Assembly: GCA_903813345.2 (NCBI GenBank)
Contig: CAIIXF020000001.1
Coordinates: 13,020,001-13,084,000 of the forward strand
Direction of reading: 5' to 3'
DNA length: 64,000 bases
DNA from: Owenia fusiformis
Lineage: Eukaryota
A model generated the notes under the pieces. It was given only the letters and a program-made list of their open reading frames with translations. It ran no database searches and had not been told where the DNA came from. Shown in pieces: positions 16,888 to 43,774 of the stretch. Each line of letters begins with the position of its first letter. Position 1 is the first letter of the stretch. Made by a program: the position numbers and the translations under genes.

Positions 16888-19800
16888 ATGAACAAGTTTG
16901 TTTTTATTATCTTAATCGTCTCAGTACTCTACGCTCGTGGAAAAGAGGATTTGCTAAACATAAAGGTTGGGTTGTTACTACCAAGGACAGGCTCTCTGGA
17001 CTATCTAGGATGGGAAACGAACGCTGCAGCAACAACCATGGCAATTGAGAAGGCTCGCATAGACGGCATCTATGATCCAGAACGTGTTAATGTTTCGTAA
17101 GTTTTTCACTTCGAATCTATTATGATGAATTATGATGATGAACTTGAATATTCAAATTGTGTTTAAAAAATTACAAGCCCATAAAGTATATATAAAGGTA
17201 AACTTACATTATGATATAAAAAAGATTACTGATACAAATACTTAGCAGAACCTAGGGTATAAAACGAAAAATAGCCAAGATTTTGACTTCATTGACACTG
17301 AAAGTAGACCCCAAAATTAATGATACAGAAACAAACCTTCGAGAGATTATTATTCAGAGTAGCTTGGCGAGATACAAAGTGCTGGGAAAGACATGGAATT
17401 GGGGCAGCTGTTGAACTGTTCAGATACGAAAATGTATCTGCTTTCGTTGGTCCTGCGTGTTCTGAAGGTATATTGAATGGGTTGGGGAACGGGTCTCCTC
17501 TGCTTGCCATCATGTTAAGGGAGAAACGAATGCTACAGATGAGGTGGCATCCATTCTGCTTGTCTCGTTGGATTCAATATGATCTGACTGTTAGTTTTGC
17601 CAATAAGAGGAGACCCCTGTGTCTGTATCTGTGTTTCCTGATGATATGACATTATCATCAAGATTATATTCAGTCGATGTATCTATTAAAATTGACTTTC
17701 AGTATAGACTTCAGGGATACCAAGTGTTGGGAGAGGCATGGTATAGGTGCTGCAGTCACCCTCTACAGGGAAGCCAATGTTGACGCGTTTATAGGCCCCG
17801 CGTGTTCCGAAGGTATCCATGATGTTGCAATCATTGCTTCATACAAGACAAAGTTCACTTAAAACATGATTCACATTCTAGGTCGCAAAATACAACATAG
17901 TAGTATTAGTATTCACAAATTGGCCCTGCTATATGATCGAATTGCTGAAATTCGTTCTTCTTGTATACGTGATCTTTTATGCTCTGAAAATCAGCCTTTT
18001 CGGTCGGTCTTTAAACAAATTTCAACATACCCGATACGTGAAATGAATACATACGTACAAAGAAGGTTAAGTGCTTGTATTTTGCGAACCAGTCTGAGTC
18101 ATGTTATTTTTATTCTCAAAAAATCTTACAATATACTTGTTAAATTTACAGAATTCAATACGTAGATACGCGCTGTAACGAGAGGGAGGGAATAGGAAAA
18201 GCGGTTGAACTTTACCGACACGACAACATTGATGCGTTTATCGGGCCCGCTTGCTCATCTCGTGGGTAACCTCTTGTCTCCCAACCACTGAGTGATATAT
18301 TGTATAACACGTAGTCTAATCAAACAAAATAACTAATGAATATGTATATACAACGAAATATTCTGTAACTAATATGTAACTCAATAATTTCAATGATGTT
18401 TAAAAGTAATTTTAACTGAAATTATTTCGTTTTAATCAGCAATCTATTGTATATAATATATATGTATATATAACAAGGCATGGGTAAAACAATACATTAC
18501 CAATTTAGAAGTTTTAGAAATGTGAGATTTTTTGAGTGCATCCAATAGTTGTACGGGAAAAATGAGTAACATTTTATCGAATTAGTTAGTATGACACAGA
18601 GGAACTTCACCTCTACCTATAATTCATAAAAATACATTTGCACCAGAAAAAACTTTAAACATTTAATTAAATTTGAATAAATATAAATAAATTAATATAA
18701 AGGATTTTAAATTGCGTATCTTAAGCTGCCGTTCCAGTGGGTCATTTAGCCTCATTTTGGAACATCCCAATGTTTGGACATGCCTCAACGGATCCGGTAT
18801 TATCCAACAAAAGACTCTTCACAACTCTTCTCCGCCTGCTTCCACCCTACAACAAAATGGGATCAGCGTTCGTTGAAATCTTTAAGTTTTATGGATGGAG
18901 ACGGTGTGTGATGCTAACAACACGCCTGGCGTCCTTGATGAGTGAAGCGTCAAGATCTGTTTTACAAAAGTTTCGGGAGTTTAACATCACACTGGCAGAT
19001 TTCATTGAAGTTAATAGTAATCTTGATGACAGCGATATTGATGATTATTTGAGAAGATTTCAACATCGGGGAAGAAGTAAGTCGGCTTTTTCTTCAGTTG
19101 ATCATTTTAACATGGCCATTTTCAATTGTGTGGGTAAGCTATATAGTTGAAATCAAAATGAATTTCAAGTACTTGTTTTGATAACATTCTAGCAGTATTC
19201 TCTAAAGCAAATGAAGGAATTACTCTTCTTGGTCTTGCCAACTCCACTTACGACCATTTACTCACATCCTGATACATAGCGTTCTTATTTTCGCAGTTAT
19301 CGTATTGCTGTTAACTACAAATGATATCAGACGAGTCATGGTCCGCGCAAGACATATGGGACTGACGAACGGAGATTATGTCTTCTTGACTACACTTTAT
19401 ATTCTGCCAACTGACGAGGTCTTGCGTCCATGGGTAGCTAACAATACCGGCGATTTTGGAGCCAAAGATGCATTTCAATCTCTATTACACGTGAGACACA
19501 AAATTTATTTTTCTTCTTTTTACGTGTTCTTATAACTCATTAAATTCAGGTGTGATTACATTTTGTGTCTTACTTATCAAATGATGATGATATTTCTAGG
19601 TCACTGTTGCATCTGTGAAAACACCAAAATCAGATGCGTTCCGTGAACAAATGGCGACTGAAATGCGCAAACCTCCTTGGAACTGGAACACTAACATTTT
19701 CGGCGGGGACATCAAGGTTTATAATTCAACAATCTTTTGCTAATTATAACTCAGGATCACAAATTTTTGATAAAAGTCCTTCACATGTTACGTCCGATTT

Positions 19801-22800
19801 TTAACAATGTTTGAGAAAATCCCTTCACACTTAACCTCTGATTCTTAACAATGTTTGAGAAAATTCCTCCACGTGTAACCTCCGATTCTTTACAATGTTT
19901 GAGAAAGTTCCTCAAGATTTAACCTTCAATCCTTTACAATGTTTGATTAAAGTCGTCCACATTAAACATCCGATTCTGTATTTAATGTTTGATACAAGTC
20001 CTCCACAATCCACATGTAACCTCCGACTCATTGCAATATTTGATAAAAGTCTTCCACATGTAACCTCCGATTCTTAACAATGTTTGATAAATGCCCTCCA
20101 CATGTAACCTCCGATTCTTTACGATGTTTGATAAAAGGCCAGATGTATATATTTAAAATGTTTAGCATTACTTTTAGAATATAGTCGTCTGTCAAGCATA
20201 TGTTCCCGTTGGGTGGGGAAGTAAAAATGGCCACTACGAATTTTTTTATATTTTTATTCTTGCAGAATAAAGTACATTCTTGTACATTAAATTATAATGA
20301 CTGTCACCCTGTTGAAACAAAGAACCTGCCTTGATAACACTTTTCAAACCCCATTCACAATATAATTAAAATGATACATTGACATTGCAGCTATTCAATA
20401 CACATTTGAAAATGTGTACATGTATATTTACCCACTCTGTAGTTCCCTTTATATTTAAAACGGGTGTAGGCTTTAACATAAAAACTAGTGCAAGGTAGAA
20501 TCAATATGCGTTTTAAATACTATATTTATGCTTGGAATTGCTGCAGGAGGTATATATAACTATTTTGTAAATAGAAGTAAAGAAATATTTATATTTATTA
20601 AAATATATTAAAGTTATTTCTAACCTTTTAATTTAGTTTTCTTTTCAAAAGACTTCTGTAAAGTAGAGTTACTGGAGTATTCGTCACATGTGCGCATGTG
20701 TCGTTTCCTTTGAATGTTCCGACCATTCTTTACAATGTTTGATAAAAGTCCACCACATGTAATCTCCGTTCTTTACAATGTTTGATAAAATCCCTCCATA
20801 TGTAATCTCCGTTTCTTTGCAATGTTTGATAGAAGTCCTTCGCGTGTAACCTTCGATCCCTCCATATGTAACCTCCATGTCTTTACAATGTTTGATAAAA
20901 GTCATCCACGTGTTACCTCCGACTTTCTTTGTTTGATAAAAGCTTTCCATGTGTAACTTCCGATCCGTTACAATGTTTGATAAAAGCTAAGGCCTCCACA
21001 TGTAACCTCCGATTATATTATTAATGACAACTATATTTTGTTATATCCGTGGCCAAGAGGATACTTGAGTTCAAATACAATGCAAAATATTCCACAGTAG
21101 TAAACTGGCGTGAAATATCGAGGTGCTATGGCAAGGATAGTATTTTATTACTGAATTCCACAAGTAACCTATATTTTAGGGTTCGATGTTTTCCCTGTTT
21201 CTCCACGATGCTGTCTATCTCTATCTTCTCGCCTTGAACGCTACGATTTCAAACGGTTTAGACTATAAAAATGGATCCATGATATTCGCCATGGCAAAAG
21301 AAATGGAATTTGACGGTATTTATAATTTACTCTATTTGCAATCTTCATTTACTCAACTAAACAATGGTTCCTTAACCTTTGTTCATTGTTTAGGCTGTTG
21401 GGGCTTGTTTTCTTACAACTGGCTGTGCTTTTCAATAATTCTTTACGGCCCAAATTATATTTCCTTAAGATGTAATTGTTTGTTTTTCACATTTGTATTT
21501 ACACATTTTCACAATACAATGAAGAAATCATGCATAATCCTAATTTCCCATGTCAACGGGTCCAATATAATATAAAAAATGAAATGAAACAATACCAGGA
21601 CGGAATGAGGGTCACTATAAAATGATAGCATCAAATCAAATTGAATTAAATTTCCCAGGAATGAGTGGTAGGGTAGTGCTTGATGATCAGGGAGAGAGGG
21701 AACCTGACTTCTGGATCTGGCAACTTCCCCCAGGGAAAGATGAGTTCGAATACATGGCAGAAGTGAAAAACACTGGAAAAGAAGGCCAGGTTAGAAATTT
21801 GACATTTTAATATTTAATATTTTGGGTAAATCAGGATGATCATCTGCCATGCCATGTGTCCCTTGATCTGGGAATATTGATCCATTGCGCCCATAAATGT
21901 CAGAATGTGTCAGATTTGTAAATTAATGCGCCGTGTAAAATGAAAACCCCAGGATGAACTCACATTATGATGATAATGGTGATATGCAAATGTCATTCAG
22001 ATGTATGTATATGTAAACTTCCAACATTTCCATAAGAATATAGTCTCCTGCCGAGTATGTGATCCTATATGATGGGTCAATTGTTAAATAATTATTAAAT
22101 AATTGACCCAAATAATTTTTACTTTCTTGTACATATCAAAAATGTCAATCTCGTGAAACAAATTAAGAACATGTCTTGATAACATTTACTTTTGTGTCCA
22201 AACGCTTAATATTTAAACCCCATACAATATATGATTATAATGATAAATCGACCTTAACTGAAGCTTTCTTATTTTTATTTTCAAATCTGAATTTTACTGC
22301 CGTTTCCTTTAAACGTGTGTAGCCTATTACAGAAAACTGATGGAAGATAGGATTAATCAATATACATTTTAGATACTATATCCACACGCAGCGATGCAAG
22401 GTGTGTCCAATTTCAACCAATCAGAACACGCTACTTCATATAACTGCATTGCATTATATAGCTAACAACCCACCCAAGGTCATTTATAGATTCTAGTGAA
22501 ACTAATGAAACTGATAAGCTGATCAATTTCATAGTCGAGTAAAAATATAATACAGTATCATATCATGTTTATTATAATAGGGAATAACCTGCAAAGTGCT
22601 TGTGCAGGTCAAATGGTAAGTATTAAATGGTTGTCAAGGTGACAAGTTGTCTCGTACAAAATATATATTTGAAAATATATTCCTTTTAGTCATTTCGTAT
22701 CTTTTAAGTGATGTTGTAAGGAACATTTTGCGATGTGTGAAAAGAATTTAAGCCCAAGACGCATTGCATTGTGGCTTATTCATTCCATTCATTCAGGCGT

Positions 22801-25800
22801 TATTTCCTAAACACCTTAGAGGAATGATTATAATCAGTCTACAATGCACTGAATCTAGGGTTTAAATTCTCAATTTATTTTTGGAATTGCTGCAGGAGGT
22901 ATATATAATTATTTTGTAAATAGAAGTAGATAATTCCTTAAATTCATTAAAATATAAAAATGTTAAAGTTTATTTCAAACCTTTGATTTAGTCCTCTTCA
23001 AAGGGTTCGTGTCTCTTAGAATTGCATTAGTCACATGTGCGCATGCGTGTTTTCCTTCAAATGTTCCAGCGAGTCCATGTTCTGAACAAGCCCTATTGGC
23101 AAACGAAGGATGGTAGTGTTCCGCTAGACACCCCAGCGTGTGGGTTTTTTAATGAAAAATGTCTGGAAGAGGAACAAAACAGAGGTAATTTATTTACATG
23201 TAAAATGTGTATATTGATTAATTCACATAGCGTTAGAGTTACTGCTTAAATAATCCTTTAGCTCATCAAGGAACACTTATATTATCCCTATTAGTGTTTT
23301 GTTCTAGTCATCTTGGAATAGATACTCGTTCTTTGCTTCAGGGCTTGATATTGCCATTATTATGATAGTTGGTGGAGCTGCCGTGTTGTGTATGATGTTG
23401 ACAGGGGGATATCTACTATACAGGTACTTTGCATTGGGAAATTATTGTCGATTTAAGTGGGATTTTACATGACTGTTATATATTTAAGTCTCTATACTTA
23501 AATATTTGTATTTGTTTGTATACTAAACAATAATAATTATTATTCTATTCAGACGGAGGAGAAATGAGGGTGAAGACGAGATGATGTCATGGAAGATCGA
23601 GTATGAAGATTTGAAGTTCAATGTAAAAGTAAAGAAAGGAATCGGAAGTACTGCTACCAAATCAACCGGAAGTCAGGTGTGCAATTTAAATTGTTAGAAC
23701 GCTGTAATCTAATCTTATCAGTAATGTGCAAATTCAACAGATTTAGTTGAGAAACATGTCAAGATACAAACTATGATTGTTAATCTAAAATAGTGTGTAT
23801 ATGTGTTTCAAAAACATTCATTTCACTTTTTGACAATTACACTGTAGATGTCTAAAAGCAATCTAGACAATCGTTCCAAGAGTAATAACAGCTCTTCGCA
23901 CGTCGATCAGTCCAGTCAGGAAGGCGTGACGAGCCAGGAGAGGCAAGATAGAACTGTTGGAATGTATAAAACAGTGACTGTATGGGTGAAATACATCCAC
24001 GCTGGAATACTTCTCACCAAAGAAGACCACAAGGAACTCAAAGTGGTAACTGCGGTTATGATTATTAACTAAATAGTAACGTTAGCAACTGAATGAATAA
24101 TGAAACACCACTGAGTAAAAATTACGTAAAAGTCATGATACATAAAAGCAAAAGTAGTAAAAGTATTGAACATTTACACTATTTATATAATTTTTGTGTT
24201 TTTAGATGAAAGACTTGAGTCATGAGAATGTTAACCAGTTTGTCGGAGTTTGTATCGTTCCACCAAAAGTTTGCATTTGCTTCGCATTTGCCGCTAAGAG
24301 AAGTCTGCAGGTGAAACTATGAATATAATTTATATAAGTCTATATGTACATCCCATAAATGGCTGACCATTATACACAAGCGTTATATTGTGCACATTTT
24401 TAAAAAAGCATGTGAATGTATTCTATGTAACTAATGAATGGTTGACATTGTAGGACATCATTTCTAATGAGGACATCAAACTGGATTGGATGTTTAAACA
24501 GTCACTAATCTCAGACATCGTCAATGTATGTATTTATGTTCCTCTTAAAACCAATGTGCACGATGTTAACAAAGTAACTATAGAATCCTTCCAAGTCATC
24601 CTCCGAACGCAGGGTTCCAGACATCATCCACTAAGTTCCTTCCTTCTTCTAGAAGAAGGAGGTATGACTTCTGGAGGCCTGTGTTTGGAGGATGTTCGAA
24701 GTAAGTGTTTCAATTCTTTTGGACAAAAGCAGTGCAAAGGCTAATTACATAATGATGATTTAAAAGAAACAATTCATATCGGTAGTTCTTACGTGAGCAA
24801 TTTCAGTAAAATAAAATATCATCAAAATTATTTTAATTTCAAAGGGTATGGAGTATATCCATGGCTCATTGTTGGTCTCCAATGGTAATCTGAAGAGTAG
24901 CAATGTTGTTATTGATGGTCGTTGGATGCTCAAGATATCTGACTATGGTCTACAGTCTTTTCGGATGGCCACTGCCAGAAAGAATTCAAAGGGCGAATTC
25001 GCAGCATATTATGGTTTGTAGACTATATTGAATAATGTGCGTGCAAACAAATAATATTATTATGATATTAATATTTTAATTGGTATGCCGATCTATGAAA
25101 ATATGTTTGATTACTTTGAACTAATTCTATTTTTGCTTTCAGCAAAGCTGTGGCGAGCTCCCGAGCTGCTGAGGATGGCAAACGCTCCACAAAAAGGAAC
25201 TCAAAAGGGAGACATTTATAGCTTTGCCATCATTCTGCAAGAAATAATATTTCGCACTGGACCCTATCATCAGACTGAAATCCACCCAAAAGGTATTTTA
25301 TTCACTATGCAGAGTTGCAGACCGCCATTATACCTATATACAGAGGGTGGGCCAAAAAAAACCAATACCCAACTTCAAATCAGGATAAAAATAGTTGCAT
25401 TCAATATGATACATTGACCTACATATCATTTTAAAGGTTATACAATTTCAAATAATTTGATATATAACACTATGTCATGAAATCAATAGTACAGTTTTAT
25501 TATACTTATTTGGGAGGCCGGGTTGCTATTTGGGGTCTCTAGATTTTAGGGAGAAAATAGTAAATCTGCGGGATTTTGTTAATTTTTTTTATAGAAAATT
25601 ATTCTTTTGTTAGGTGAATACATGCTTGGATATTGATATTTGCATCATTGTGTGACTAAATTTATTGTTTATGAATTTCAGTGTTGTTTAATAACATTTT
25701 ACACTTTATTTATTTAAACAATTTTAACAATTGCTCAATGTACCCCACCCCCTCCCCTCTGAATCAACAATAAGCTTCAAGTGGTAGCGCAATCTATCAA

Positions 25801-28800
25801 TAGCCTTATTGAGAGATTTCTGTTGCAATTCCTTTCAGCACTTTAGGATTTTGTTTCAGCTCATCAATGCTGTTTATTGGATACTTTTAATTGTACCATT
25901 TCTTCGAGATGGCTCCATGTATGGTAATCAAACACATTAGCATCGGGGCTGTTGGGTGGCCAAGCATCGAGATCAATCAAATTGACACCTTGTTTGCAAA
26001 GAAATGCCAATGTCTCCTTTGATCTATGGTACGAGGCAATGTCTTGTAGGAAAATAAAATCCTCGTCACATATACGTTTAATTTCTTTTAACAGACCCCC
26101 TTTGAGTACTTATTGATAATAAACAACACTAAAATTCATAAACAATAAGTTAAGTCACACAATATGCAAATATACAAGCATGTATTCACCTAACAAAATG
26201 ATATTCTATAAATAAAAAATTAACATTATTCCGCAGATTTACTATTTTCTCCCTAAAATCTGGATACCTTAAATACCGACCCGGCCTCCCAAATAAGCAT
26301 GATAAAACTTTAATATTGATTTCATGACATAGTGTTATATACCAAATTGTTCGAAAATGGATTACCTTTAAAATGATATATAAATCAATGTAACATATTG
26401 AACATAGCTATTTTTATTCTGATTTAAAGTTGGGTATTGTTTTTTTTGGCCCACCCTGTAAATTGAAAGATTCGGATGTCTTTTTGAGTAGTTTCTACTA
26501 GTGATAGTGATCAATTTTATTTTGAACTGTTTTAGCATGTTAAGCGTGCATTGTATGTGATTTGTGCAGATATCGTAGGGAGGGTTGCTCGAGGTGATAA
26601 CCCACCATATCGACCTGATGTACCTGCAACGTCCGAAGAGGGAAACACTGCGATAGCCATGATAGAACTTATGCGAAACTGCTGGCATGAAAACCCAGAC
26701 TATCGCCCTTCTTTTACTGACATTAAGAAACAGATGACAAGTGAAAATCGGGGCAGGTGAGTCTAACATATACTTGATAAACTTTATTTTGTATTTAGAA
26801 ATTGTTGGTCGAGTAGCAAGGGGGGATAATCCACCATATCGACCTTTGATGCCAATGGATGCAGATATTAACATCAATATGGTTGAGATGATGCGAACCT
26901 GTTGGCATGAAAATCCATTTTATCGACCAAGCTTCGTTGACATAAAGAAACAATTGAAATCATTTGATCAAGGAAAGTAAGTATAGAAAACAGTCTACAT
27001 TTTAGTGTTAATGGTTTTGGTCTTTTTGGATTGACAGCGTTCGTACCTGGGTTTACCCTTGTTTTCCATTCATTCGATCTTTGTTATCGTAACATTGGGT
27101 AATTGGGTACTGTTAATCTTGATGATATGTTTCTGCACGTGTAGGAAGTATAATATCATGGACAAGATGCTGATGAAAATGGAAGCTTATGCGAATAACC
27201 TTGAAGAAGTTGTGGAGCACAGAACACAGGAACTGATGGAGGAGAAGAAGAAGACTGATACACTGTTATACAGAATGTTGCCGGGGTAAGAATCCAGAAA
27301 CACCTCTCTGGCTTTCATTGTCTCGTGGTCGGACATTTCATTTCAAGTATGTGAGGCATATAATGATAAGATGGTATGGCCTCGATGTGTTTACACTCTC
27401 CCATGTATACCGTTCCGTATTAGTGAAATTGTTGACATTAATACGGAATAAATCATACCATTTCATGAAAAATGGTGACCTTGTCCTACGGAAATTGAGA
27501 TTATGTTTCACAGCAAGTTCGCACGGCGATACTGTATAGCACATGCTCTGGGGAATTGATTCTACTTTCTATAGACACCAATCACATCTCTGTCAATATA
27601 ATAATAAAAAAGCCTTAGGGTCCCAACCTCCTTTGTTTACATTTACAAAAATCTGAAAAAATGACAAAAGTTGCCATAACTTTTTAAATCTAAATCTGTT
27701 GAAACCGATTTCACTTGCTTGCGACAGATACTTTAGTCCTTCACGAACCGAACATGTCAGTTTGGTTCGTAATATCTACAAATAAACGATTTCAACATTT
27801 TGAAAAACTCGATGCTAGTCCACGTGTTAATACGGAATGGGTGTTAAATCGTATACATTCCCGGGGAAATCACAATTTCCACAAAGCTTGCAATGATGCA
27901 TCTTATTGCATGCAAATGGCACGTTAATCAACAGCGTCAACACGTCCGTCAATCGCAAGGATCGAATGTACATAAACAGTGTTCTCTTTTTCTTAAAGGC
28001 CCCATGTAAAGTTTAAACCACTTTGGCTTATATTGTAGTCTTACCCAATGTTATCAAAGTGTGATATGTGAAACTTTTTTTTTAAATTTCAAAAAGTGGT
28101 TTTTGATAGACTTTGTGTTCCAAAATTTGTGAATTTATTTAAAACCAACTTTTAGAGGTCACTCATATCTTGTTATTAGCCACAATTCATACCAATGCAT
28201 AGCATTCATCCTCCCATGTTTTTTGCAGAAAAAATTAAGAAAATCGGTTGATAAACAAGCGAGAAATGAACTTATCAGTGCATGAAAATGGTTCTGAGAA
28301 AAATGCATTTCAAAATTTTAGTTCTCATAGAAACCAATGGTACAATGATATCTAAAACATAATTTATTCTTCCTTTTAACCTGGTTAGACAATCAATATT
28401 GTTTTTTTTATGAAAGTTTAGCATATTTAGAAAAGATTGATATCGAAAAAAAAAATTCAATTTTTTTCAAAAAGTTTTTGTTACCTTAGTGACATCACTA
28501 ATGTTTCAAAATATTTTTGATAAGCTAAAACATTGAAGTGGCCCATTAAATATGACATTTTATTATTGAAATAGTGTGTCTTTTGTTCAATCTTTGCATT
28601 GGTGTTAAAAAGATAATCTTTTTTGAAATGCATTAAGAAATATTTGATGATTAAGAAATTTCAACTTTTTTTGAAAAATGGCGGGAAATTTGAATATTTG
28701 AGAAATGAAATGCTCACAACTTTTTTTTCCAAAATTGTTTTTTGTTCAAAAATCTCTAAAACCACTTTTTAAGTCCTGACAAATAGTAAATGAATGATAA

Positions 28801-31800
28801 AAAAATATTTTCAAACTTTAGACGGGGACTTTAAGTATTTAAAGATACATGTAAGTTGTCCATCGACGGCGTCAACGTGATAGCTTTACGCCCATTAATA
28901 GTATAGATAGGTTGTTGTGCCTTTTCTTATTGCATCTAATAGGTATTAGTTTTACCGACGGCTACAACGTATGTCCTGGATCCAAGCAACGTGTTTGTTT
29001 TGTATTTAAGAATTGCTATAGCCATGGGATGGTCTCGCGTGGGGTATTTTTTGGGGTGCACAAGAAAACCCCACGAAAGTCCCGGTAGGTGTATATTATT
29101 AGGTACTTTGTGAACGTGTTGAGTTGTTTTCTTACCTGCCGATTCCCCCAACACGTTCCCATTACACCAGAGGATGATTGAAGTGTTAAAAATGGACAGC
29201 CAGCCGCATTGTCTTTGTAAAAGTGGGCAAGACCACAACAAAAGTCTTTTGATTTTTCCGACATTTTCATTCAAAAACGTGGTTGACGCCACATTTTAGA
29301 AAGACAATTAGTACTAAATGAGAATAGCTGTCCATTCCAGTCTAGTGCTGGCACTTAGATGATTTTCTTGCCAAGGTTGTGGTACATTCTTCAAACCGAC
29401 ATGACACTCTTACCCTCTCCATGACAATGAAGTTATAATTGAAACTAAATGCCCATGCTACTGAAACCCGTATTCAAGGTATTATGTTTAATACCCCGGG
29501 TTAAAACATACTAATATTGTACAACACTACTAATTATCTTAATTGCTTCATTTCATTCACGAGTGTACAGTTTCGTTCATTGAGTTTACCTATCGAGTCG
29601 ACCAATTCCGTATTAACACGTGGACTAGCATCGAGTTTTTTAAAATGTTGAAATCGTTTATTTGGAGATATTACGAACCAAACTGACATGTTTGGTTCGT
29701 CAACGACTAAAGTATCTGTCGCTGGCAAGTGAAATCGGTTTCAATAGTTTAAGATTTAAAAAGTTATGACAACTTTTGTAATTTTTTCACGTTTTTGTAA
29801 ATGTAAACAAAGGAGGTTGGGACCCTAAGGCTTTTTTATTATTCTATCGACAGCGATGTGATTGATGTCTATAGAAAGTAGAATCAATTCCCCAGAGCAT
29901 GTGCTATACAGTATCGCCGTGCGAACTTGCTGTGAAACATAATCTCAATTTCCGTAGGACAAGGTCACCATTTTTCATGAAATGGTATGATTTATTCCGT
30001 ATTAATGTCAACAATTTCACTAATACGGAACGGTATACATGAGAGAGTGTTTATATTTGATGCTATAACCGTTTTGTTCACACATTTGAAGTATATGAGG
30101 CATATAATGATCAGAGGGTACAGCCTCGAAGTGCTTCTATTATACTAAAATCTCTTTGTTTACACATTTTAGACCTATTGCTGAGAGTTTGAAGACTGGG
30201 AAATCTGTCCACCCAGAACTATATGATACAGTGACTGTTTTCTTCTCAGATATAGTGGGCTTTACAAGGTTATGCTCAAAAAGTACACCATTACAGATCG
30301 TCACTCTTCTTAATGACCTTTATACACTTTTCGATGATGTCATTGCCAAATATGATGTATATAAGGTACACTAATCTGAACATTTTATTTCAATGTTATG
30401 TCTGTTTTGGCATGTCTTATAAACTGCCAATCATGCAAGCATGCTTGAAATGCAAAACTACTCAATGCGGTCCATCAACTACATCAAGGATCATCGAAAC
30501 CGGTGGAAGCAAAATACATTGATTAAGGGGGTGGGTATTTGAATTGTCAGTTATATGTATTGTTGTCTATGGGGTCATTTATCTAGGTGGAAACTATAGG
30601 AGATGCCTATATGTGTGTGAGTGGACTACCTCTACGAAATGGTAACAAACACGTTGCTGAAATAGCAGACATGGCCCTCGACTTGCTCAGTTCTATAGCT
30701 TCTTTCAAGATCAGGCACAGACCAAATAAACAGCTACAGGTATGAAAACTCCCGCAATTCCGGGACTACTCTGTCGGGATCAAGATAAGATTTGATCCTA
30801 TGTTTCAAATTATAGTGTCTATAAGGATTTGTCATTTATTCCGTGTACTGGTAGAAGTGCATTGGACATTATAAGCCCCAAAGATACAAAATGATGCCTT
30901 TTTATTTGAGTTGGGCTGATGTTCAGAAGTTATCATTTATTATTTTAGATTTGTTTCTTTTAACGTTTTACATGATACATGGATATGGACCATATTTTCA
31001 TTTTCATCCCTTTTACCATGTTTTTACAATATTCATTAAGGCTAGGATAGGGATCCACACCGGCCCATGTGCAGCAGGTGTTGTTGGGACACAGATGCCT
31101 CGGTACTGTCTATTTGGTGACACTGTCAATATGGCATCCACTATGGAATCAACAGGGGAAGGTAAAATAGGTTTAACAATAACATCTTATGAAATAGAAC
31201 GCTATTTAACACATTATCTCCAGTATGGCATTATTTTTGCTTCTTTATTCATTAAATTCAAATATATTCGATATATGAAACATTCATATTCGCTAAATCA
31301 TTTTTCCATTCGGTAAAAACGTTTATATGTTTGTTACAGCAAATTAAGTTTTCAAAATAGCCAATCACTTAATACTATGTGCATTAAATTACATATTTCA
31401 TTCGTTAAATGATTTTTTTGCGTAAATTGTTATGGTATTCCTTAAGAGTAACACATTATATGCACAATATTGAATTTTTATTTGAACCCTACCGAAATAA
31501 GTTTGCCTATATTTACCAAATGGTTTATTTTTCTATGACATAGTTAATGCATTTTACCGAAAACTGTTTTGCTATTTACCGAAAGCTAATTTGCTATTTA
31601 CCGAATGCAATAAAGTAATATTCGATAACTTGCGTTGTGGTTCGATATTTTGTCACGTGACTTCGAGATTTGCAAAATGGCCGCGCAGCTATTCTACATC
31701 GTACAAATATATCACGTGACTGAAAGTCTCGTAAATTATCGAAAAATAACGAAATTTATCGAATGTGGCATTCGGTATTTACCGAATATAAATAATTTAA

Positions 31801-33215
31801 ATACCGAATGTACAAATAATTAATTGAATTATACGTGCGTTAAGGAAAACAAATTGATTCGCTGCATCACACAAATACATGTATACATATCAAATGTGAA
31901 TGTCAATACAAAGAACAAGTGAAACTATTTAGCGAATATAAATTGTATAGATTATTACATTTGATAAAATAAAAAAACATTCGATAGATTGGGTAAAGGT
32001 TTGGTAAATTGTTTGTTTTATTTGGTATTTATGGAATATTGATGTACCGAATAAAGAAGCAGTTTAAACATCATATTCCAGTTGTGATTGTCTAGAATGT
32101 GATCAGACCCTGGGGATCAGATCCCACATGTTCCCATCGTATGCCTGGACCAATCGGTGCACATGGATATTGCCTTTCTGCACTATAAATATTCCTTTGT
32201 ACTAATTTAGTGTCAAGGCTATTCCAAAGAATTCATCCTCATGCAATTTATGAGAAGAATAAATAATGTTTTAATGGTTGTAGCATTACGTATACAGATG
32301 AGCCAGGAGGCAGTAGATGTTCTCTTGGAACACACAGGCTACATGGTGAAGGAAAGAGGCGATGTGGAAGTAAGAGTAGGTGTCCTATTATGTATTTTCG
32401 AATCGTTTCCTTTTCGTTGTCTGTATCATAAATACAAAGCTTTTGATGTATCATTCATAGAGAACAATTGAAAAATATGAATTTTTATAGGATATTAATT
32501 AGTCTATTTATCATCTGCTTCATCTATGTAGGGAAAGGGAAATCTGACGACCTATTGGTTGACTGGTAAACGGGGTTTCCACAAGCCGCTCCCCAAACTC
32601 AGTGTTGACTTGTAAGTTATACACAGATCGTGATCACTTATTTGATGTACTGGCCCTTTTAGCATGTTTTTTGATATAGTCAATCACTTTATACAACAGT
32701 TATATTAAGGATGTTCAGGGGACAAACTTTGTTTTAAATAGTATTTCAACATAATATTTGGTAAGCACATGGGCTACAAATATGTAAGGGCTAGTATCAG
32801 AAAATTTCCAGAGAACATCCTTAATTTGCAATATTTGATCATATGAATATTTTGGTTATTGGAAAAAAATGAATATTTTGGTTATGTAGGCGGTTGAAAT
32901 AGAACAAAAGGCCTACTTCCATTTTCAGGCCTCATATGATTGTTGAGGAAATTGATGACTTGACAGGTCAGTATCAACGAGTTGAAATCCTTCCACGTTT
33001 TTTTCTAAAAGTTTTATAAAGTGATTGTTCAACTAATGACTAAATCATATTCTGTCTTGCAATGTGGATATTTAATTTTATAAAGTCAATAAGTATTTAA
33101 GAGATATATCATTTGAAACTTGATTAAATGGAACTTACACGCTTTACAAAAGAATTTAATCTTAATTGATTTTGAATTATAAATCTTAACCCTTTCAGAT
33201 CAAGTGGTGACATGA
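16888..33215 (+). CDS. Receptor (membrane) guanylyl cyclase, natriuretic peptide receptor type: signal peptide, extracellular ligand-binding domain, TM helix, kinase-homology domain, coiled coil, cyclase domain
   Basis: Exons: 16888-17096; [17358-17467 | 17703-17812 | 18152-18261]; 18726-19076; 19297-19490; 19600-19716; 21180-21315; 21659-21789; 23070-23184; 23342-23423 (TM); 23553-23676; 23848-24045; 24206-24310; 24454-24525; 24845-25013; 25143-25292; [26570-26756 | 26799-26976]; 27145-27285; 30173-30365 (FSDIVGFT); 30587-30739 (VETIGDAY); 31041-31161 ([12 protein letters not shown]); 32284-32375; 32532-32611 (GKG..TYWL); tentative last exons 32929-32966 and 33199-33215. All splice phases are consistent. 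Confidence 0.93.
17358..17467 (+). CDS. Guanylyl cyclase exon 2a (mutually exclusive candidate)
   Basis: 110 nt, AG..GT, phase 2-1; [36 protein letters not shown]. Confidence 0.85.
17703..17812 (+). CDS. Guanylyl cyclase exon 2b (mutually exclusive candidate)
   Basis: 110 nt, AG..GT, phase 2-1; [36 protein letters not shown]. Confidence 0.85.
18152..18261 (+). CDS. Guanylyl cyclase exon 2c (mutually exclusive candidate; absent from the ORF track)
   Basis: 110 nt, tttacAG..GTgggt, phase 2-1; [36 protein letters not shown]. Confidence 0.82.
19765..20135. repeat. ~39-bp minisatellite in a guanylyl cyclase intron; second array at ~20723-21012
   Basis: Repeated unit of the form ttgataaaagtcctccacatgtaacctccgattctttacaatgt with substitutions. 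Confidence 0.85.
25341..26458 (-). mobile_element. Tc1/mariner deletion derivative with long TIRs and a DD37D (maT-type) transposase relic
   Basis: TA|cag(a)gggtgggccaaaa ... ttttggcccaccctg|TA with ~350-bp inverted arms. Minus strand ~26110-25890 reads [38 protein letters not shown], with 37 residues between the two Asp. Confidence 0.85.
26570..26756 (+). CDS. Guanylyl cyclase kinase-homology exon 16a (mutually exclusive candidate)
   Basis: 187 nt, phase 1-2; [31 protein letters not shown]. Confidence 0.85.
26799..26976 (+). CDS. Guanylyl cyclase kinase-homology exon 16b (mutually exclusive candidate)
   Basis: 178 nt, phase 1-2; [31 protein letters not shown]. Confidence 0.85.
27394..30049. 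mobile_element. Large fold-back element, Chapaev-like (CAC..GTG, 4-bp TSD)
   Basis: About 440-bp near-identical inverted arms (27394-~27838 and ~29606-30049); TSD TTTA at 27390-27393 and 30050-30053. No transposase recognised. Confidence 0.75.
27997..28830. mobile_element. Kolobok-like MITE nested in the fold-back element
   Basis: TTAA|aggccccatgtaaagttt ... aaactttagacggggact|TTAA. Confidence 0.7.
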
Positions 33216-34133
33216 ATGGACGTATGACTCAAGATAGTGACTGATGTCATAAAACATGACAGTTCCTTCCAAGGGATTAAATTTAATGAGGTTGGAAATA
33301 ATCACGGCTTGATGAAGCAAGATTTGTAATCTTAGAAACGAAATCACCGAAACATCGTCGCCTGACAATGTAATACCAGAATCAGTCATCCTGGAAGAGA
33401 CAAAGACTGTCATTGTTTTTTACATTTACAGTTTCCGGGGAGTGAATTTTATCTTATATGTATTATATGACAGACTATTGTGCAAGATATTAGTAGTAGG
33501 TAGAAAGTATTCTGTTCGTTAATCTTAAAATATTTTATTGGCATTCCTAAACAGCACAAGTTTAAAAAATGAACTATACTACTCCGTAAAATTATGGTGT
33601 AATTTAGTACAAAAATAATCTACATACATTAAAGGAATGTACCACTTTTTGAACACCCTGTTTTTAAACGTTATTGTTATATTATGTTTTCTAAGTTCTA
33701 CGAGATGAGCGTGTTTATTTAGGTTTAACGCCAAAGATTCTGTTGAATCTTTGAAAGATTTTTAAACTCTTATTAAATAGGTACGAATTATTGTGAATGG
33801 TACATTTTGTTTAGTGTTTGTTAATCAATGTAGTCGACGTATTTTATCGTAATTAAACGATTTTTTAATTGTAAAATGATGTTATTACTAGAACATTGCT
33901 CAATCATTAAATGTGCTAATTACTATATGGAAATGTGCAATTTAAAACAAATTAAACATCACTTAGTGAGCGTTTATTGCATGTTCTTATGTATGTTATA
34001 AATTCATTATCATGTCGATATATTGATACAAAACTATTTTAGATGGAAGTTATTTCCTGTTTAAATATTCGCTAAACTAACTTCGCTGTCGACTTTCAGC
34101 TCTGATATGTGCTATGTACACTTCCCTCAATAA

Positions 34134-37900: not shown

Positions 37901-40900
37901 ATGGATATATGGATTTTGTTATCGTCTGCATTTTCTATTGCATTATGGGGCATTGTCTCTTCGTCAGGTATGTCTGTTTCAATAATCTCAAATTGTATTT
38001 ATGGATATGACTTAGGCCTGTAATCTGCAGCAATACTGTATACTTGTATCAAGACATGTTCTACATGCCCATTGAATGATTTAAAGCATCTTTTTGCATC
38101 CACGCTAGAAATCACCAAAATTCTTATTGAATTGGCATTACAGAGAACAAGATGTTCTGTTACTACAGTAGCTTCGCCATCAACAGATCAGGCAAGGCTA
38201 AGTTCCTCCCCGAACACATCAACCCTTATCTCTGCACTCATATCATTTACGCATTTGCTGACGTGGTCGATGGTAGAGATCTGAGGCCATCGGCTAAGGA
38301 TGACGTTAGCAATAAAGGTATACAGTGTAAATATTGTAATTTTTTTAACACAAATAATGTGTTGTTCTTAAATGTAATAACACGATTAATTTTTAGAAAA
38401 TGTTGATTTTCAGTGTTTGCATATTATAGATAACAAAGCTATATAGGAATCTGATATGATTAAACTTACCAGCCCAATGCTTCCGAGTCGGAGTTTACTT
38501 ACAAATGAATTGTATCCATGTTCCAGATATTCATTCAGATATTTCCCAAGTTAATTTAGTGTTAGAGAATAATATGTTGGTTTTGCATATAAATACGATA
38601 TTTTTCGGTAGAACAAATGTTCTTCTTCAGCCATGCTATAACTATATACGAACATGAATCACATTATTAAAACAAGGTACATCTTTTAGGATTATACTAC
38701 AGGACAATGGGTCTGAAGAAGTTAAATCCAGAACTAAAGGTCCTGTTGGCAGTAGGGGGTTGGTTTGTCGGTTCAAAACCATTCATTCCTATCTTGCAGT
38801 CCGACTCCAATCGTTTGGCATTTGTTGCCAACGTAATTGCCTACCTAAGAAAGGTACGTAGGTTGGCATTTTTGTCATATTTTTGAAAATGTTGTTATTC
38901 AGTAAAAGCCAAGTCGCAAGATAGCAGATAAGCGGCATTTAAAAAACATTTGAATTAAAGTTCTCTATGTTAATTCCCGATGACACAAAATATTGCAGAT
39001 TCATTCCAAATTGATTTTAAAATTACAATTTGATTTCTAATTCTTTCGCTCTCTTCAGTATAACTTTGATGGCCTGGATATGGACTGGGAGTTTCCAGGG
39101 GCACGAGGAAGTCCTGAATCTGACAAGCATCGTTTCACTCTCCTGATGAAGGTACATGGATTTAAAATACCTGTCACATTTACAGTGTGGGCTCACCGTT
39201 TGCCACCATGTGGCTGATTCTCCAGAATTTTTATTAATGCCCAGGCATTAATCTTTTAATTAATCAATTGCCATAATTTTTGTATTTGGTGTGATGGGGG
39301 ATATCTTGCTTTAAAAATATTTATTTTACCCATCATGTACCCATGCCGAATCCCATCGTCTGCCCAAAAATATTCACACGGTTGAAAAAATTGTGTCAAA
39401 GCCCAATGTGACAGCTCCATAAACACAAATCCATTAATACAAGTTAGAATATGTTCTCTCGTTTGAAAATATTATGATAGCGTTTATAGTCATCTTAAAC
39501 GAAACATGCTTGATAATTTATAATCAATACTGTTGTGATAGTGTTTTCCAATAGATTAATTGTTGGCGCATTAAATTCAAAACTTTGTCCATTTGATTTA
39601 CAGGATCTCCAAGATTCATTCCGAGAAGAGTCAAAGTCTAGTGGTAGAGAAAAACTTCTGTTAACCATGGCAACCGCCGGAGGGATGTACTTTATCAGTA
39701 AATCGTACGATCCACCACGGTTGATACCGTAAGTAAAATCAACGTTCAAACAGATACTTATAACATTACTTCTGCACTAATATCTGATAACTATTGATTT
39801 TTATAAAAAGTAATTGATCAAAAAATATCAAAGTCATATTTCATTTCGATCATATTATCTCGGCCAGCCCTCAATTAATCGAATAAGAAACAATAGGCCA
39901 ATGGGTCAATGGAAGTTTATTTTTTGCGTAAATATCATTTCCGACATTGAGTTTGAAACAAACCACTGGCAATTGCAGGTTTCACAGTTGATTACCATGA
40001 ACAATTCCAAAGTTGCATACGCTGAATTTGATCTTTAGATGTTTTAAATGTTAAGCAAGAGGGAAAATTTTCCGGATTTTTCGGATTTTGATTATTTTAG
40101 ATAGGTTTGTAGCTGCTTTTTCTCTCTTCAAGGGTAACAATATAAAAATGCAACCTTTTTAAAGTGCTTTGTTACATGAAAAATCCTCATCGAAGAAAGT
40201 CATTGGCATCTGAAAATATTGCCAGATTTACAATACTGAGTTTGCTACATTTTGCTGGAATGCATCGGTAGTAGCCAGCGTGGTACATTATGAGGTGTAA
40301 GCTAATTTATAAATAGACATAAGACACATCTAACTCATCTTTCTTATAATTTTTAGTTTTTATTGCCTTATGGCAGATAATATCTTCTGCGCCGGCTATT
40401 CTATTTGACCTACTTTCTGAACTTTCTCGCCTTTTTGGAACTTTCTTGATTTCTGTCGGCAGTTTTGAAAGATTGAAACTGGCAAAGAAGAAAAACTTCC
40501 CCCACAATATGTTTGTAATAGAAATTCATTATTTCTAAATAATGGTAATTTCCTACTTTTTTGATTTAGTCATTTTTTTATCGAAAATTAATTACTTTCA
40601 GTCACATCGACTACCTGTTACTAATGGCCTACAACTATCATGGGAGCTGGGAGGATAGGACTGGGCATCACAGCGGTAGCCACCCCCGGGCACAGGAAGT
40701 GGGGCCTGAGAGGCAGTTAAACCAGGTTAGTCACTATATCTGGAACAGGCGTAAAATATTGGATGTGCTTACCTCATTATAAAATACTTCTTTGACTCCA
40801 CCAAAATGAATTACAGAAAATGGTAGCGGTACTAGCTGCGGAATATCTCTCGAGAGCCCTGTCTTTGGAGGATGCTTTTATATTATTAATGGTTGAAATT

Positions 40901-43774
40901 TATCAGCTTTTCAGGTTTATGGCTAATTGTGTACTGGATATGATTTGTCAATTAATGAGTCGACTGTCTTAATAAATGCAAAACGATCAATTGAATTTAT
41001 CGATATATTTTATAAGGATGAGTTATTATAAGATTGACAAGCATTGAACATTTAAATCTTCTCGAAAATAAATAAAAAATCTCTAACGATACTATTGTTT
41101 AAGGATTTAAGCCATGGACTCAGTGCATTGTTTGCTGAATCATTGTTTCTAAACCTTTGCATGACCGCGCAGCGGGAATGCAACGTTTAGGAAACAACGC
41201 CTGAGTGGAATGAAGTCTTGGGCTTAAATTCTTTTCACACATTGCAATTTTTCTACAAAATCATCCAAAAGGAACGAAATCACCAAAATAACACATTTTC
41301 AATGAATTTTTTTGCAAGGGTCAAGTTGGCAAGTCATCAAATCCAAGGTGAAAAGTCCATTCATCAACATGACATCTGTTTAACAAGTGACCTTGCATGT
41401 GCTATTGATATTTCACACACTGTTCTATCTGTGAAATACTATTTGGCTGGAATCGGACACACCTTGCCTAGCTATGTGTGAATAGTGTCTTAAAGTTATA
41501 AACTCAGGACTCCGTACATATTGTTCAGTGTGACAATGGAATAGAATGACAAGATACAAGGTGGCGTCTAGAAAATAAAATTTTAAGTGCTCTAACTGTA
41601 TTCAATGGATTTCATGTTTTGTTGTAAACCACCAAATATCTACCAAAATATAGCTGCCTTTCTGTCAGGAATATACAATTAATGGAATTAATTAATTAAT
41701 GAAAATATCAAAGCTTCTGCTTGAAAGAATTGCTTATATCACACAAAAACCTCAAGCCGTGGGTGTAGACCACAGAAAGCATTAACGAGCATTTGATAGT
41801 TTTTTGTAATTTTGGGATCAAAGTTTGAGAGATCTTTCGCTCATATTATTTTGTGTAATAATTTTTTTTGTAAATCAAAAAGTTCATACCTCAAGAGCTA
41901 TAAACAGTATATCTTTTCATTTCAGCAATGGACAATTGACTACTGGTTAGAGCAAGGTGCCAGTCAGGACAAATTGATCGTTGGCATAGCAACGTATGGA
42001 ATGACTTTCACGTTGGCGGATGCAAATCAAAATGGTGTAAATGCAAGTGCAACCGGGGGTGGAAAGAAGGGAAAATATACAAAAGAAGAGGGCATACTTT
42101 CGTACTTCGAGGTAAAATTCAACAAAGCAATATTTTGTATAGCTGCATTTTAAAGAGTTCAGTTAAGAACGTCCCTCTCCGAAAAGGCATTTACAAATCG
42201 AGTAATGCCAAATATTATTTATGTTCCAGATATGTGATTATATGAAATATGGGATGAAAACTGTTTGGATGGATGAGCAAATGGCGCCTTATGGTTACCA
42301 TAACAACCTGTGGGTTGGCTATGACAACCAGGAGAGTATCACCTACAAGGTTCGTTACAATGGTTTTGAACATATTTGTACTACATTTACTAATAATATT
42401 ATGTAATTATCATCGTCTTTTTTAGCCTAATTGAGTTTGTAACATAGAATCATAGATTGGTTTTGAATTTTTCCTTTAGATATGGTATGAACTAAGACTG
42501 AAACAAGTTTTTCCAGATATCAAACTCATTCTCTTTTGTTCGGTTCTTTGATTTTAAATCGGTTTATTGTAGGCCAATAACATCAGGAACAGAGGCTTAG
42601 GCGGGGCATTTATTTGGTCGGTGGAAATGGATGACTTCAATGGAAAATCATGTAACCAAGGCAGATATCCACTCCTTTCGACAATAGCAGAGATCCTTAG
42701 ACCACAATCGGTGAAGACGTACATACCAAGATTCCCTCGTCCGAATAGGCGAACCACTTTACAACCTGGCCAGAGGACGCTAAGGCCAACACCAAGGAAG
42801 GTTAGACCAACTAAGAATAAAGTAAGACCTCGTTCTCGAACAAATGCTATCCCTGAAAGACCCAAAACTGACAGCCAGAATGCTAACGGTGTAAAAACAG
42901 CCAAATCCGACTCAGCTGACAACATGAGGGAACTGACTTCCAAAAAGGAAGGAGATCCCGATATGGTAACAGACGAAGAGAATGGCGACAGTCGGATTTC
43001 TCATCGAGGGGGAAATAACAAATATCAACGAACGAGAACTATTCCTACTGAAAACGAAGATGATACAGAATCAAAACAGATTAAAACAGGTACGAGATCA
43101 AAAATCGAAAGATTAGACAATAAACTTTTAGAGGATGAGCAAAGCGTCCATGTTATAAAAAAGAAAAAGACTCCAATTGAAAACACAAAACCTTCAACTC
43201 ATGATCAAAATACTGAAAGTGAGTCTAAAGTTAAACGAAAGGATGGAAAACGGATACGAGTTCGACTCAGAAAGAATAAAACTGGGGAGAAAAATAGTAT
43301 TCCTGACAATTTGTCAAGTTCAGCTCCATATATGCCCGATGCGTCCTCCACCTCATTTACCGTATTAACGATATTGATGGCACAATATTGCATTTATATT
43401 TAACCTATAAAAAGTTGAAAAACAACCATTTCATTATTTGTATTTTCTACGTGTTTTCCAACAAGTTTGTAATACTACTGTACATATATTATATTGATAC
43501 CAGACGAAATAAATAACTGTTTACTATTAATCATAAAGTTTGTTATAAAACTATACAAACAACACAATCATTTATAAATTGTGAAAAACATATTTTATTT
43601 TCAGGCAAATTCGTTTGCCCAACTGCTGGTTTTTATAAAGACACCCTAGACTGTGGTAAATATTACATCTGCTTGAACATGGGGAATAAATATCGCCAGT
43701 TTCACCTTTCTTGTCCCCGGGATCTTAGGTGGGATAATACCCTACAGATTTGCACTTATAAGCATGGTTGCTGA
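37901..43774 (+). CDS. GH18 chitinase with a long charged/Pro-Arg linker and a C-terminal CBM14 (ChtBD2) exon; alternative read-through C-terminus ends at 43403
   Basis: Exons: 37901-37967 (signal peptide), 38144-38317 ([10 protein letters not shown]), 38690-38853 (KVLLAVGGW), 39059-39151 ([11 protein letters not shown], catalytic DxxDxDxE intact), 39604-39728, 40602-40725, 41926-42111, 42230-42349, 42573-43089 or -43218 (or read-through to stop 43403), 43605-43774 (six-Cys [29 protein letters not shown]). Confidence 0.93.

Follow-up and report, generated by a model that had tools for sequence, protein, structure and literature searches.

How does a gene ensure that just one of two adjacent, homologous exons enters each messenger? 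In the annelid Owenia fusiformis, the question is raised by a gene for a receptor guanylyl cyclase that lies within the 64,000 nucleotides (nt) of forward-strand DNA analysed here (contig CAIIXF020000001.1, positions 13,020,001 to 13,084,000; in the following called the window) and carries two copies of its exon 16, A and B, separated by a spacer of 42 nt. We favor, with a probability of roughly 0.68, an old tandem-duplicate pair that is used mutually exclusively, with the exclusivity secured by both the spacer and the reading frame. From the evidence set out below we infer a steric block, the site of the branch point and the exclusive use of the copies in vivo, along with any difference in function between the isoforms.

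The window consists of animal DNA with 32–41% G+C. A search with exon A yielded a single significant protein among eight candidates, a 1091-amino acid “Guanylate cyclase” from Owenia fusiformis (P0001), which is 100% identical to exon A over this segment. By strict spliced mapping, all 1091 of its 1091 residues map exactly to 23 coding exons bounded by GT..AG, which places the NPR1/GC-A-like receptor guanylyl cyclase gene at 16888..33244 on the + strand. The Pfam domains found in P0001 are ANF_receptor (residues 47–395), PK_Tyr_Ser-Thr (564–809), HNOBA (829–870) and Guanylate_cyc (878–1061). Residues 78–1066 align with the solved structure of the human ANP receptor 1 (9bcl, E 3.7e-214). The domain order is that of a membrane receptor guanylyl cyclase, with a signal peptide, the ANF-receptor domain, a transmembrane segment, the kinase-homology domain, a coiled coil and a class III cyclase; the signal peptide and the transmembrane segment were assigned by eye, without a predictor. 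At the position of the catalytic loop, the structural alignment sets ...NGNLKSSN of P0001 against HGNLKSSN of NPR1. We take these two motifs, in which the catalytic Asp is absent, to be the mark of a pseudokinase. By its predicted architecture, the gene is an NPR1-like membrane receptor guanylyl cyclase with a pseudokinase domain.

The duplicated pair is exon 16 of the 23; the deposited protein includes copy A and omits copy B. Exon 16 codes for residues 756–817 of P0001, and its peptide comprises the end of the kinase-homology domain, with the motifs RP...CW..P..RP.F, plus eight residues leading toward the coiled coil. In the classical scheme this segment presumably represents kinase subdomains X–XI, roughly helices G to I. 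The first-pass annotation of this DNA had placed the pair in the pseudokinase C-lobe beside the coiled coil, and the domain matches bear this out, since the Pfam kinase match stops at residue 809 and the HNOBA match begins at 829.

All features of the pair lie on the + strand. The common upstream exon 15 occupies 25143..25292, and its donor at 25292/25293 has to pair with the acceptor of A or of B. Exon 16A follows at 26570..26756 (187 nt), flanked by ...TGTGCAG on its 5′ side and GTGAGT on its 3′ side. The spacer intron between the copies (26757..26798, 42 nt) holds the donor of A together with the branch-point region, pyrimidine tract and acceptor of B. Exon 16B (26799..26976, 178 nt) has a 58-codon open frame and intact, strong splice sites, with TTTAG at the end of the spacer and GTAAGT downstream. 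Then follows the common exon 17 (27145..27285), the start of the coiled-coil or dimerisation segment. The start-to-start period from A to B is 229 nt. Both copies have the same phase, the first 2 nt completing a codon and the last 2 nt belonging to a split codon, and the last base of exon 15, a G, yields Asp with the AT of A and Glu with the AA of B. The two lengths are both 3n+1 and differ by three codons, in frame. The coordinates, lengths, phases, spacer and motif positions given in the first-pass annotation proved exact to the base, and its junction coordinates, the end of exon 15 at 25292 and the start of exon 17 at 27145, were confirmed by the spliced mapping of P0001.

The two exons had also been called homologous, and they are. 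A tblastn search of A against the whole window returned B at 63.9% identity over 61 positions (E 4e-24) and found no third copy of exon 16 in the window, the next-best match having an E of 0.65. At the protein level, 39 of 58 aligned residues are identical, and the MAFFT alignment shows 39 invariant columns and one 3-codon gap; at the DNA level, 118 of 189 alignment columns are identical (62%). Over the 58 codons, the proportion of synonymous differences (pS) is 0.85 and thus saturated, and that of non-synonymous differences (pN) is 0.245. The first 15 codons alone contain 11 synonymous and 0 non-synonymous differences, and a Fisher test of synonymous versus non-synonymous change between A and B gave p = 7.9e-11. 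Because the synonymous sites are saturated, the duplication must be old. A neutral copy of that age would have lost both its frame and its motifs, yet both are intact in B, which argues that B is not drifting neutrally.

A family alignment was built from 118 homologous segments with a near-full-length match, taken from 150 library matches listed, with the other 32 left out. Among its columns, 20 are conserved in at least 60% of the segments; A keeps 19 of these and B keeps 18. The differences between A and B sit at family-variable positions, namely exon residues 16–32, 43, 49 and 54–60. The isoforms would differ in two places: the stretch following the conserved Y-R-P, of 16 residues in A and 13 in B, and the final eight residues ahead of the coiled coil. 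As far as sequence can tell, both copies are functional and under purifying selection. A joint A+B profile, searched against 1.84 billion representatives, gave 688 matches at E ≤ 0.001 and 23 at E ≤ 1e-10. The closest outside segment among the matches listed has 29 residues identical to A and likewise 29 to B, compared with the 39 that A and B share, so that the copies are each other's nearest relatives and the duplication looks specific to this lineage, with the proviso that the representative collection is clustered at 50% and close relatives may be hidden in it. A gives the higher score for 97 of the 149 matches listed, B for 45.

Scored against MAG/GTRAGT over nine positions, the donor of A (CAG/GTGAGT) is the best of the 25 donors in the gene and the sole one with a 9/9 match, and the donor of B (AAA/GTAAGT) is second best with 8/9. 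The acceptor of A is weak, with 11 of 20 pyrimidines and no yTnAy motif within 50 nt upstream; that of B has 13 of 20 pyrimidines. A thus combines a poor acceptor with a perfect donor, B a good acceptor with a good donor, and the deposited model nonetheless uses A. This asymmetry suggests either that an activator is required for A or that B is chosen by default. Apart from the spacer, the gene has 22 introns of 109 to 2887 nt, all of them far longer; the median intron of Owenia fusiformis is given as 1,091 nt (PMC12257675, Table 3).

No AG occurs in the 35 nt before the acceptor of B; the first one met upstream belongs to the GTGAGT of A. As a rule, the first AG downstream of a branch point gets used. 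With no AG for 35 nt back into the donor of A, the branch point of B almost certainly lies within the 42-nt spacer. There are three candidate sites: CTAAC at 26763..26767, with the branch A at 26766, 32 nt upstream of 26798; TTGAT, 22 nt before B; and TTTAT, 13 nt before B. As the first-pass annotation had noted, CTAAC stands directly 3′ of GTGAGT, and its second A is intron position 10. It is the best candidate and the only perfect branch consensus in the gene; CTRAY occurs at −45..−13 in only 3 of the 22 other introns, never as CTAAC. We give CTAAC an even chance of being the branch point of B, with TTGAT as the alternative. The exact choice matters little for the geometry, because a branch site inside a spacer of 42 nt always lies close to the donor of A, at a distance of about 10–30 nt for any of the candidates.

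We therefore consider it probable that the spacer truly blocks splicing of A to B. The branch point of B would be at most ~30 nt from the perfect donor of A, and 10 nt if CTAAC is used, so that the sites of the U1 and U2 small nuclear ribonucleoproteins (snRNPs) would abut or overlap. In this model, the donor of A and the branch site of B could not both be productively engaged on one spacer. If the donor of A were used, the acceptor of B would be disabled and A joined to exon 17; if the branch site of B were used, the far-off donor of exon 15 would be its partner and A would be skipped. With one copy per messenger, the gene would produce two receptors differing at the end of the pseudokinase region before the coiled coil. 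Two other explanations for exclusivity were looked at. No RNA fold hiding the donor of A or the branch site of B was detected (z of 0.31 for the spacer region; 126 of 200 shuffled sequences reach an equal or better fold), and U12/U2 incompatibility between the copies was rejected by eye, as both donors are GTRAGT.

The reading frame provides a separate control. Only the combinations 15+A+17 and 15+B+17 leave the frame open. Double inclusion of A and B meets a stop 10 codons into B, skipping of both copies a stop after nine codons, and retention of the spacer an immediate in-frame stop (AGG TGA). Since both exons are 3n+1, the frame alone gives exclusivity at the protein level; a real steric lock would then be an additional layer rather than the only mechanism. 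Exclusivity is thus probably double, and any leak (both copies in, both out, or the spacer kept) would run into an early stop and probably into messenger decay. The steric lock is plausible but unproven, and control by the frame makes it redundant. The arrangement may also be original. Alternative exons that arise through tandem duplication are a known idea, and a duplication unit as small as 229 nt would make a short spacer at birth, so that the pair was possibly exclusive from the start.

How does this geometry compare with known systems? For exons 2 and 3 of alpha-tropomyosin, a case that goes back to Smith and Nadal-Ginard in 1989, the branch point of the downstream exon reportedly lies too near the upstream donor, so that the exons cannot be joined to each other and each pairs with the distant flanks. 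The Owenia pair likewise has the branch region of B close to the donor of A, and each copy would be able to pair with distant flanks. In alpha-tropomyosin, however, the branch point is said to be displaced far upstream of its acceptor within a longer intron, whereas in Owenia the whole intron measures 42 nt, any branch point in it is close (10 nt in the case of CTAAC), and the case is known from sequence alone.

A donor-to-branch-point threshold of ~50 nt has been given, together with branch points at 25–41 nt in vertebrate OGDH (PMC7969005). There, as we propose for Owenia, branch points close to the upstream donor enforce the exclusivity of exons 4a and 4b, but the OGDH branch points have been mapped, their pyrimidine tract is long, and neither the gene family nor the lineage is the same (PMC7969005). 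Among human clusters of mutually exclusive exons (MXE), 57 of 629 (9%) have less than 50 bp from donor to branch point (PMC5740500). Comparable clusters are known from C. elegans, where the intervening introns of 5 of 29 verified clusters fall under the species limit of ~40 nt and are never excised (PMC4165533). The pairs egl-15 5B/5A (14 nt) and let-2 9/10 (30 nt) resemble the Owenia pair in being tandem homologous exons with a very short whole spacer. They differ in that the exons of the five clusters are 3n, which makes the steric block the sole safeguard, while the 3n+1 exons of Owenia have the frame as a second one; moreover, the limit of ~40 nt is documented for C. elegans and may not be that of Owenia (PMC4165533). 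Overall, the Owenia geometry fits the known steric class well.

Human NPR1/GC-A and GC-C (PDB 9bcl, 8fx4) share the domain architecture and align end to end with the Owenia protein. For no receptor guanylyl cyclase did full-text searching of the open-access literature turn up mutually exclusive exons in the kinase-homology domain. The pseudokinase C-lobe of GC-C is held by the Cdc37/Hsp90 regulatory complex (PMC10400071). Whether the variable A/B block might touch partners of the Cdc37/Hsp90 type is speculation by analogy.

Several points weigh against a double lock, and the first of them concern the length of the spacer. A minimal intron length for Owenia was not in the text found, which gives medians only, and the published thresholds are those of mammals and C. 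elegans and may not be Owenia's. In Dimorphilus, also an annelid, the median intron measures 106 nt (PMC12257675), and humans splice some “ultra-short” introns of less than 66 nt (PMC4463651). Since very short introns are spliced in humans, 42 nt is no absolute bar. The short spacer may also be a mere by-product of the 229-nt duplication unit. Finally, the short-intron clusters of C. elegans consist of 3n exons and need a steric block, but the exons here are 3n+1 and the frame alone would suffice.

Taken together, these points lead to the rival explanation that survives best. The exons may be a true alternative pair whose exclusivity comes from regulated competition between splice sites, together with the frame and nonsense-mediated decay, while splicing of the spacer would occur, if only at a low level, and the spacer would be no more than what a small duplication left over. 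Such a scheme agrees with the period of just 229 nt, with the splicing of very short introns in some animals, and with the 3n+1 lengths, which make double inclusion and double skipping self-destructive; in 60% of the human MXE clusters, too, exon length is no multiple of three (PMC5740500). The branch-point consensus of the gene is loose (CTRAY in 3 of 22 introns), which would in principle allow TTTAT, 13 nt before B, to act as branch site. Against this explanation stands the position of the branch site itself. A spacer branch site 12–22 nt from the acceptor is 20–30 nt from the donor, under every published threshold found (~50 nt in mammals, ~40 nt for the whole intron in C. elegans), and the other 22 introns of the gene are all at least 109 nt long. 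We regard this explanation as unlikely.

The remaining points of this kind come from reads and records. Three raw-read RNA runs of the same species, including the runs X14 and X15, were sampled at ~11–13 million reads each and mapped to 25101–27300; an index lookup listed no RNA run as containing 22501–32500. The three runs placed 781, 667 and 1113 reads on this region, nearly all of them on the repeated transposon in intron 15 (25323–26506). Exons 16A and 16B were covered by one read pair of X14 and one read of X15 across the three runs. The X14 pair is unspliced at both ends and is uninformative; judged by its bin depths, one end covers ~26534–26670, with 36 nt of intron 15 running into exon A, and the other begins at 27155 and passes 27300, across the donor of exon 17. 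The X15 read is 151 nt long and has depths of 0.51, 0.35, 0, 0.38 and 0.80 in successive 74-nt bins, corresponding to 38+26+28+59 letters. From the exact fit of these bin depths we infer that 26913–26976 is joined to 27145–27231 in this read, that is, the donor of B would be spliced to exon 17. The junction is a single, indirectly placed read, below the 3-read minimum of the joint table. Reads over 25292 to 26570, 25292 to 26799 and 26756 to 27145 were absent at a coverage of about one read per exon; at this coverage, the absence of reads joining 26756 to 26799 carries no weight either. Among protein records (a collection of 5.8 billion), exon B was not found: the “longer” search gave two candidates and only P0001 at 64%, matched via A, and the “near” search gave no candidate. 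Likewise, no A-type or B-type counterparts in other species were seen among the profile matches in the 1.84 billion representatives.

These data bring up the possibility that exon B is a relic, included never or hardly ever, and that the gene makes the A form only. The A form is indeed the only one on record, and an annotation pipeline that used RNA sequencing still yielded one isoform (bioRxiv 10.1101/2022.02.05.479245). A relic should look different, however. The silent sites are saturated and still 39 of 58 residues are kept; B retains 18 of the 20 family-conserved positions, an open frame, an in-frame length difference of three codons and the second-best donor of the gene, and the one read placed by its bin depths joins B to exon 17. 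We therefore rate a relic as improbable.

An independent set of DNA contigs (X1, record 1) bears on the arrangement itself. One contig spans 26459–27109 with one differing letter and no gap. The set is DNA, as the introns are covered, at a word depth of ~11–18, and the contig represents a haplotype without the 1120-nt transposon of the window. It confirms the order A, spacer, B in a second haplotype, which argues against an assembly artefact. That the duplication is an artefact, or that the second copy stems from a neighboring paralogue, can be dismissed, as this contig of the other haplotype crosses A, spacer and B with one difference and no gap, and copies just 62% identical in DNA and both flanked by the same unique exons are no mis-joined repeat.

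The exon 16 pair is accompanied by a second duplication in the same gene. Three homologous copies of exon 2 lie at 17358–17467, 17703–17812 and 18152–18261 on the + strand, each 110 nt long (3n+2); they share one phase, and every copy is bounded by an AG acceptor and a GT donor. The cluster belongs to the ligand-binding domain, and P0001 uses the first copy. The introns between them measure 235 and 339 nt, which makes a steric block impossible in this cluster; the frame would enforce single use. The six isoforms proposed in the first-pass annotation are arithmetic only, from three exon 2 copies times two exon 16 copies. A more far-reaching version would have GTGAGT and CTAAC form an 11-nt composite element in which the U1 site of A and the U2/SF1 site of B touch or overlap. 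Two snRNPs would compete directly for the same bases and thereby decide between the pseudokinase variants, and the gene would produce, with the exon 2 cluster, up to six receptors differing in both ligand-binding surface and intracellular regulation. We hold this version to be doubtful, with perhaps one chance in four. If the composite element were true, the donor-to-branch distance of 10 nt would make a tighter switch than any mapped steric case, OGDH with 25–46 nt included.

Intron 15 contains a non-autonomous DNA transposon of 1120 nt (25339–26460) with a TA target duplication. Its termini are perfect 19-nt inverted repeats, with 86% complementarity when they are followed out to ~250 nt, and it holds an 81-amino acid remnant with a weak DDE_3 match (E 0.0031, below the Pfam cut-off). 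The genome contains many copies of the element, and transcripts come from both of its strands. The X1 haplotype lacks it at this site, where 25338 is joined to 26459, and the insertion, 111 nt upstream of exon 16A, is hence polymorphic; an intron 15 free of it measures just 157 nt. Nearby transposon insertions can disturb the OGDH pair (PMC7969005), and by analogy the Owenia transposon could influence the choice between A and B. RNA reads on the transposon (25604–26428, X13–X15) show joints of the types “opposite strands” and “goes back”, for instance 25604/26197 and 26195/26428. Such joints are as expected of rearranged or hairpin-forming copies elsewhere in the genome and are no feature of the cyclase gene.

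Neighboring genes were judged by eye, from open-frame translations alone. Two similar CAP/CRISP-like genes with a poly-Thr linker lie upstream of the cyclase on the − strand (251–1985 and 10051–11169). Further along the window are a chitinase-like gene, whose product has a linker rich in Pro, Thr and Arg as well as a Cys motif of the chitin-binding type (38131–43771, + strand), and a thiolase/sterol-carrier-protein-2-like gene (48711–56446, − strand).

The mechanism proposed for exon 16 is textbook, and what the locus offers is a new example, easy to work with experimentally, rather than a new principle. If confirmed, it would be a clean invertebrate case, outside nematodes and insects, of a duplicated exon locked into an either/or choice by a very short spacer alone, and it would mean that exons can be mutually exclusive from the moment a small tandem duplication creates them. 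It would also mark the last pseudokinase helices and the junction to the coiled coil as a possible site of regulatory tuning in receptor guanylyl cyclases, which could guide mutagenesis in the medically important NPR1/GC-C family.

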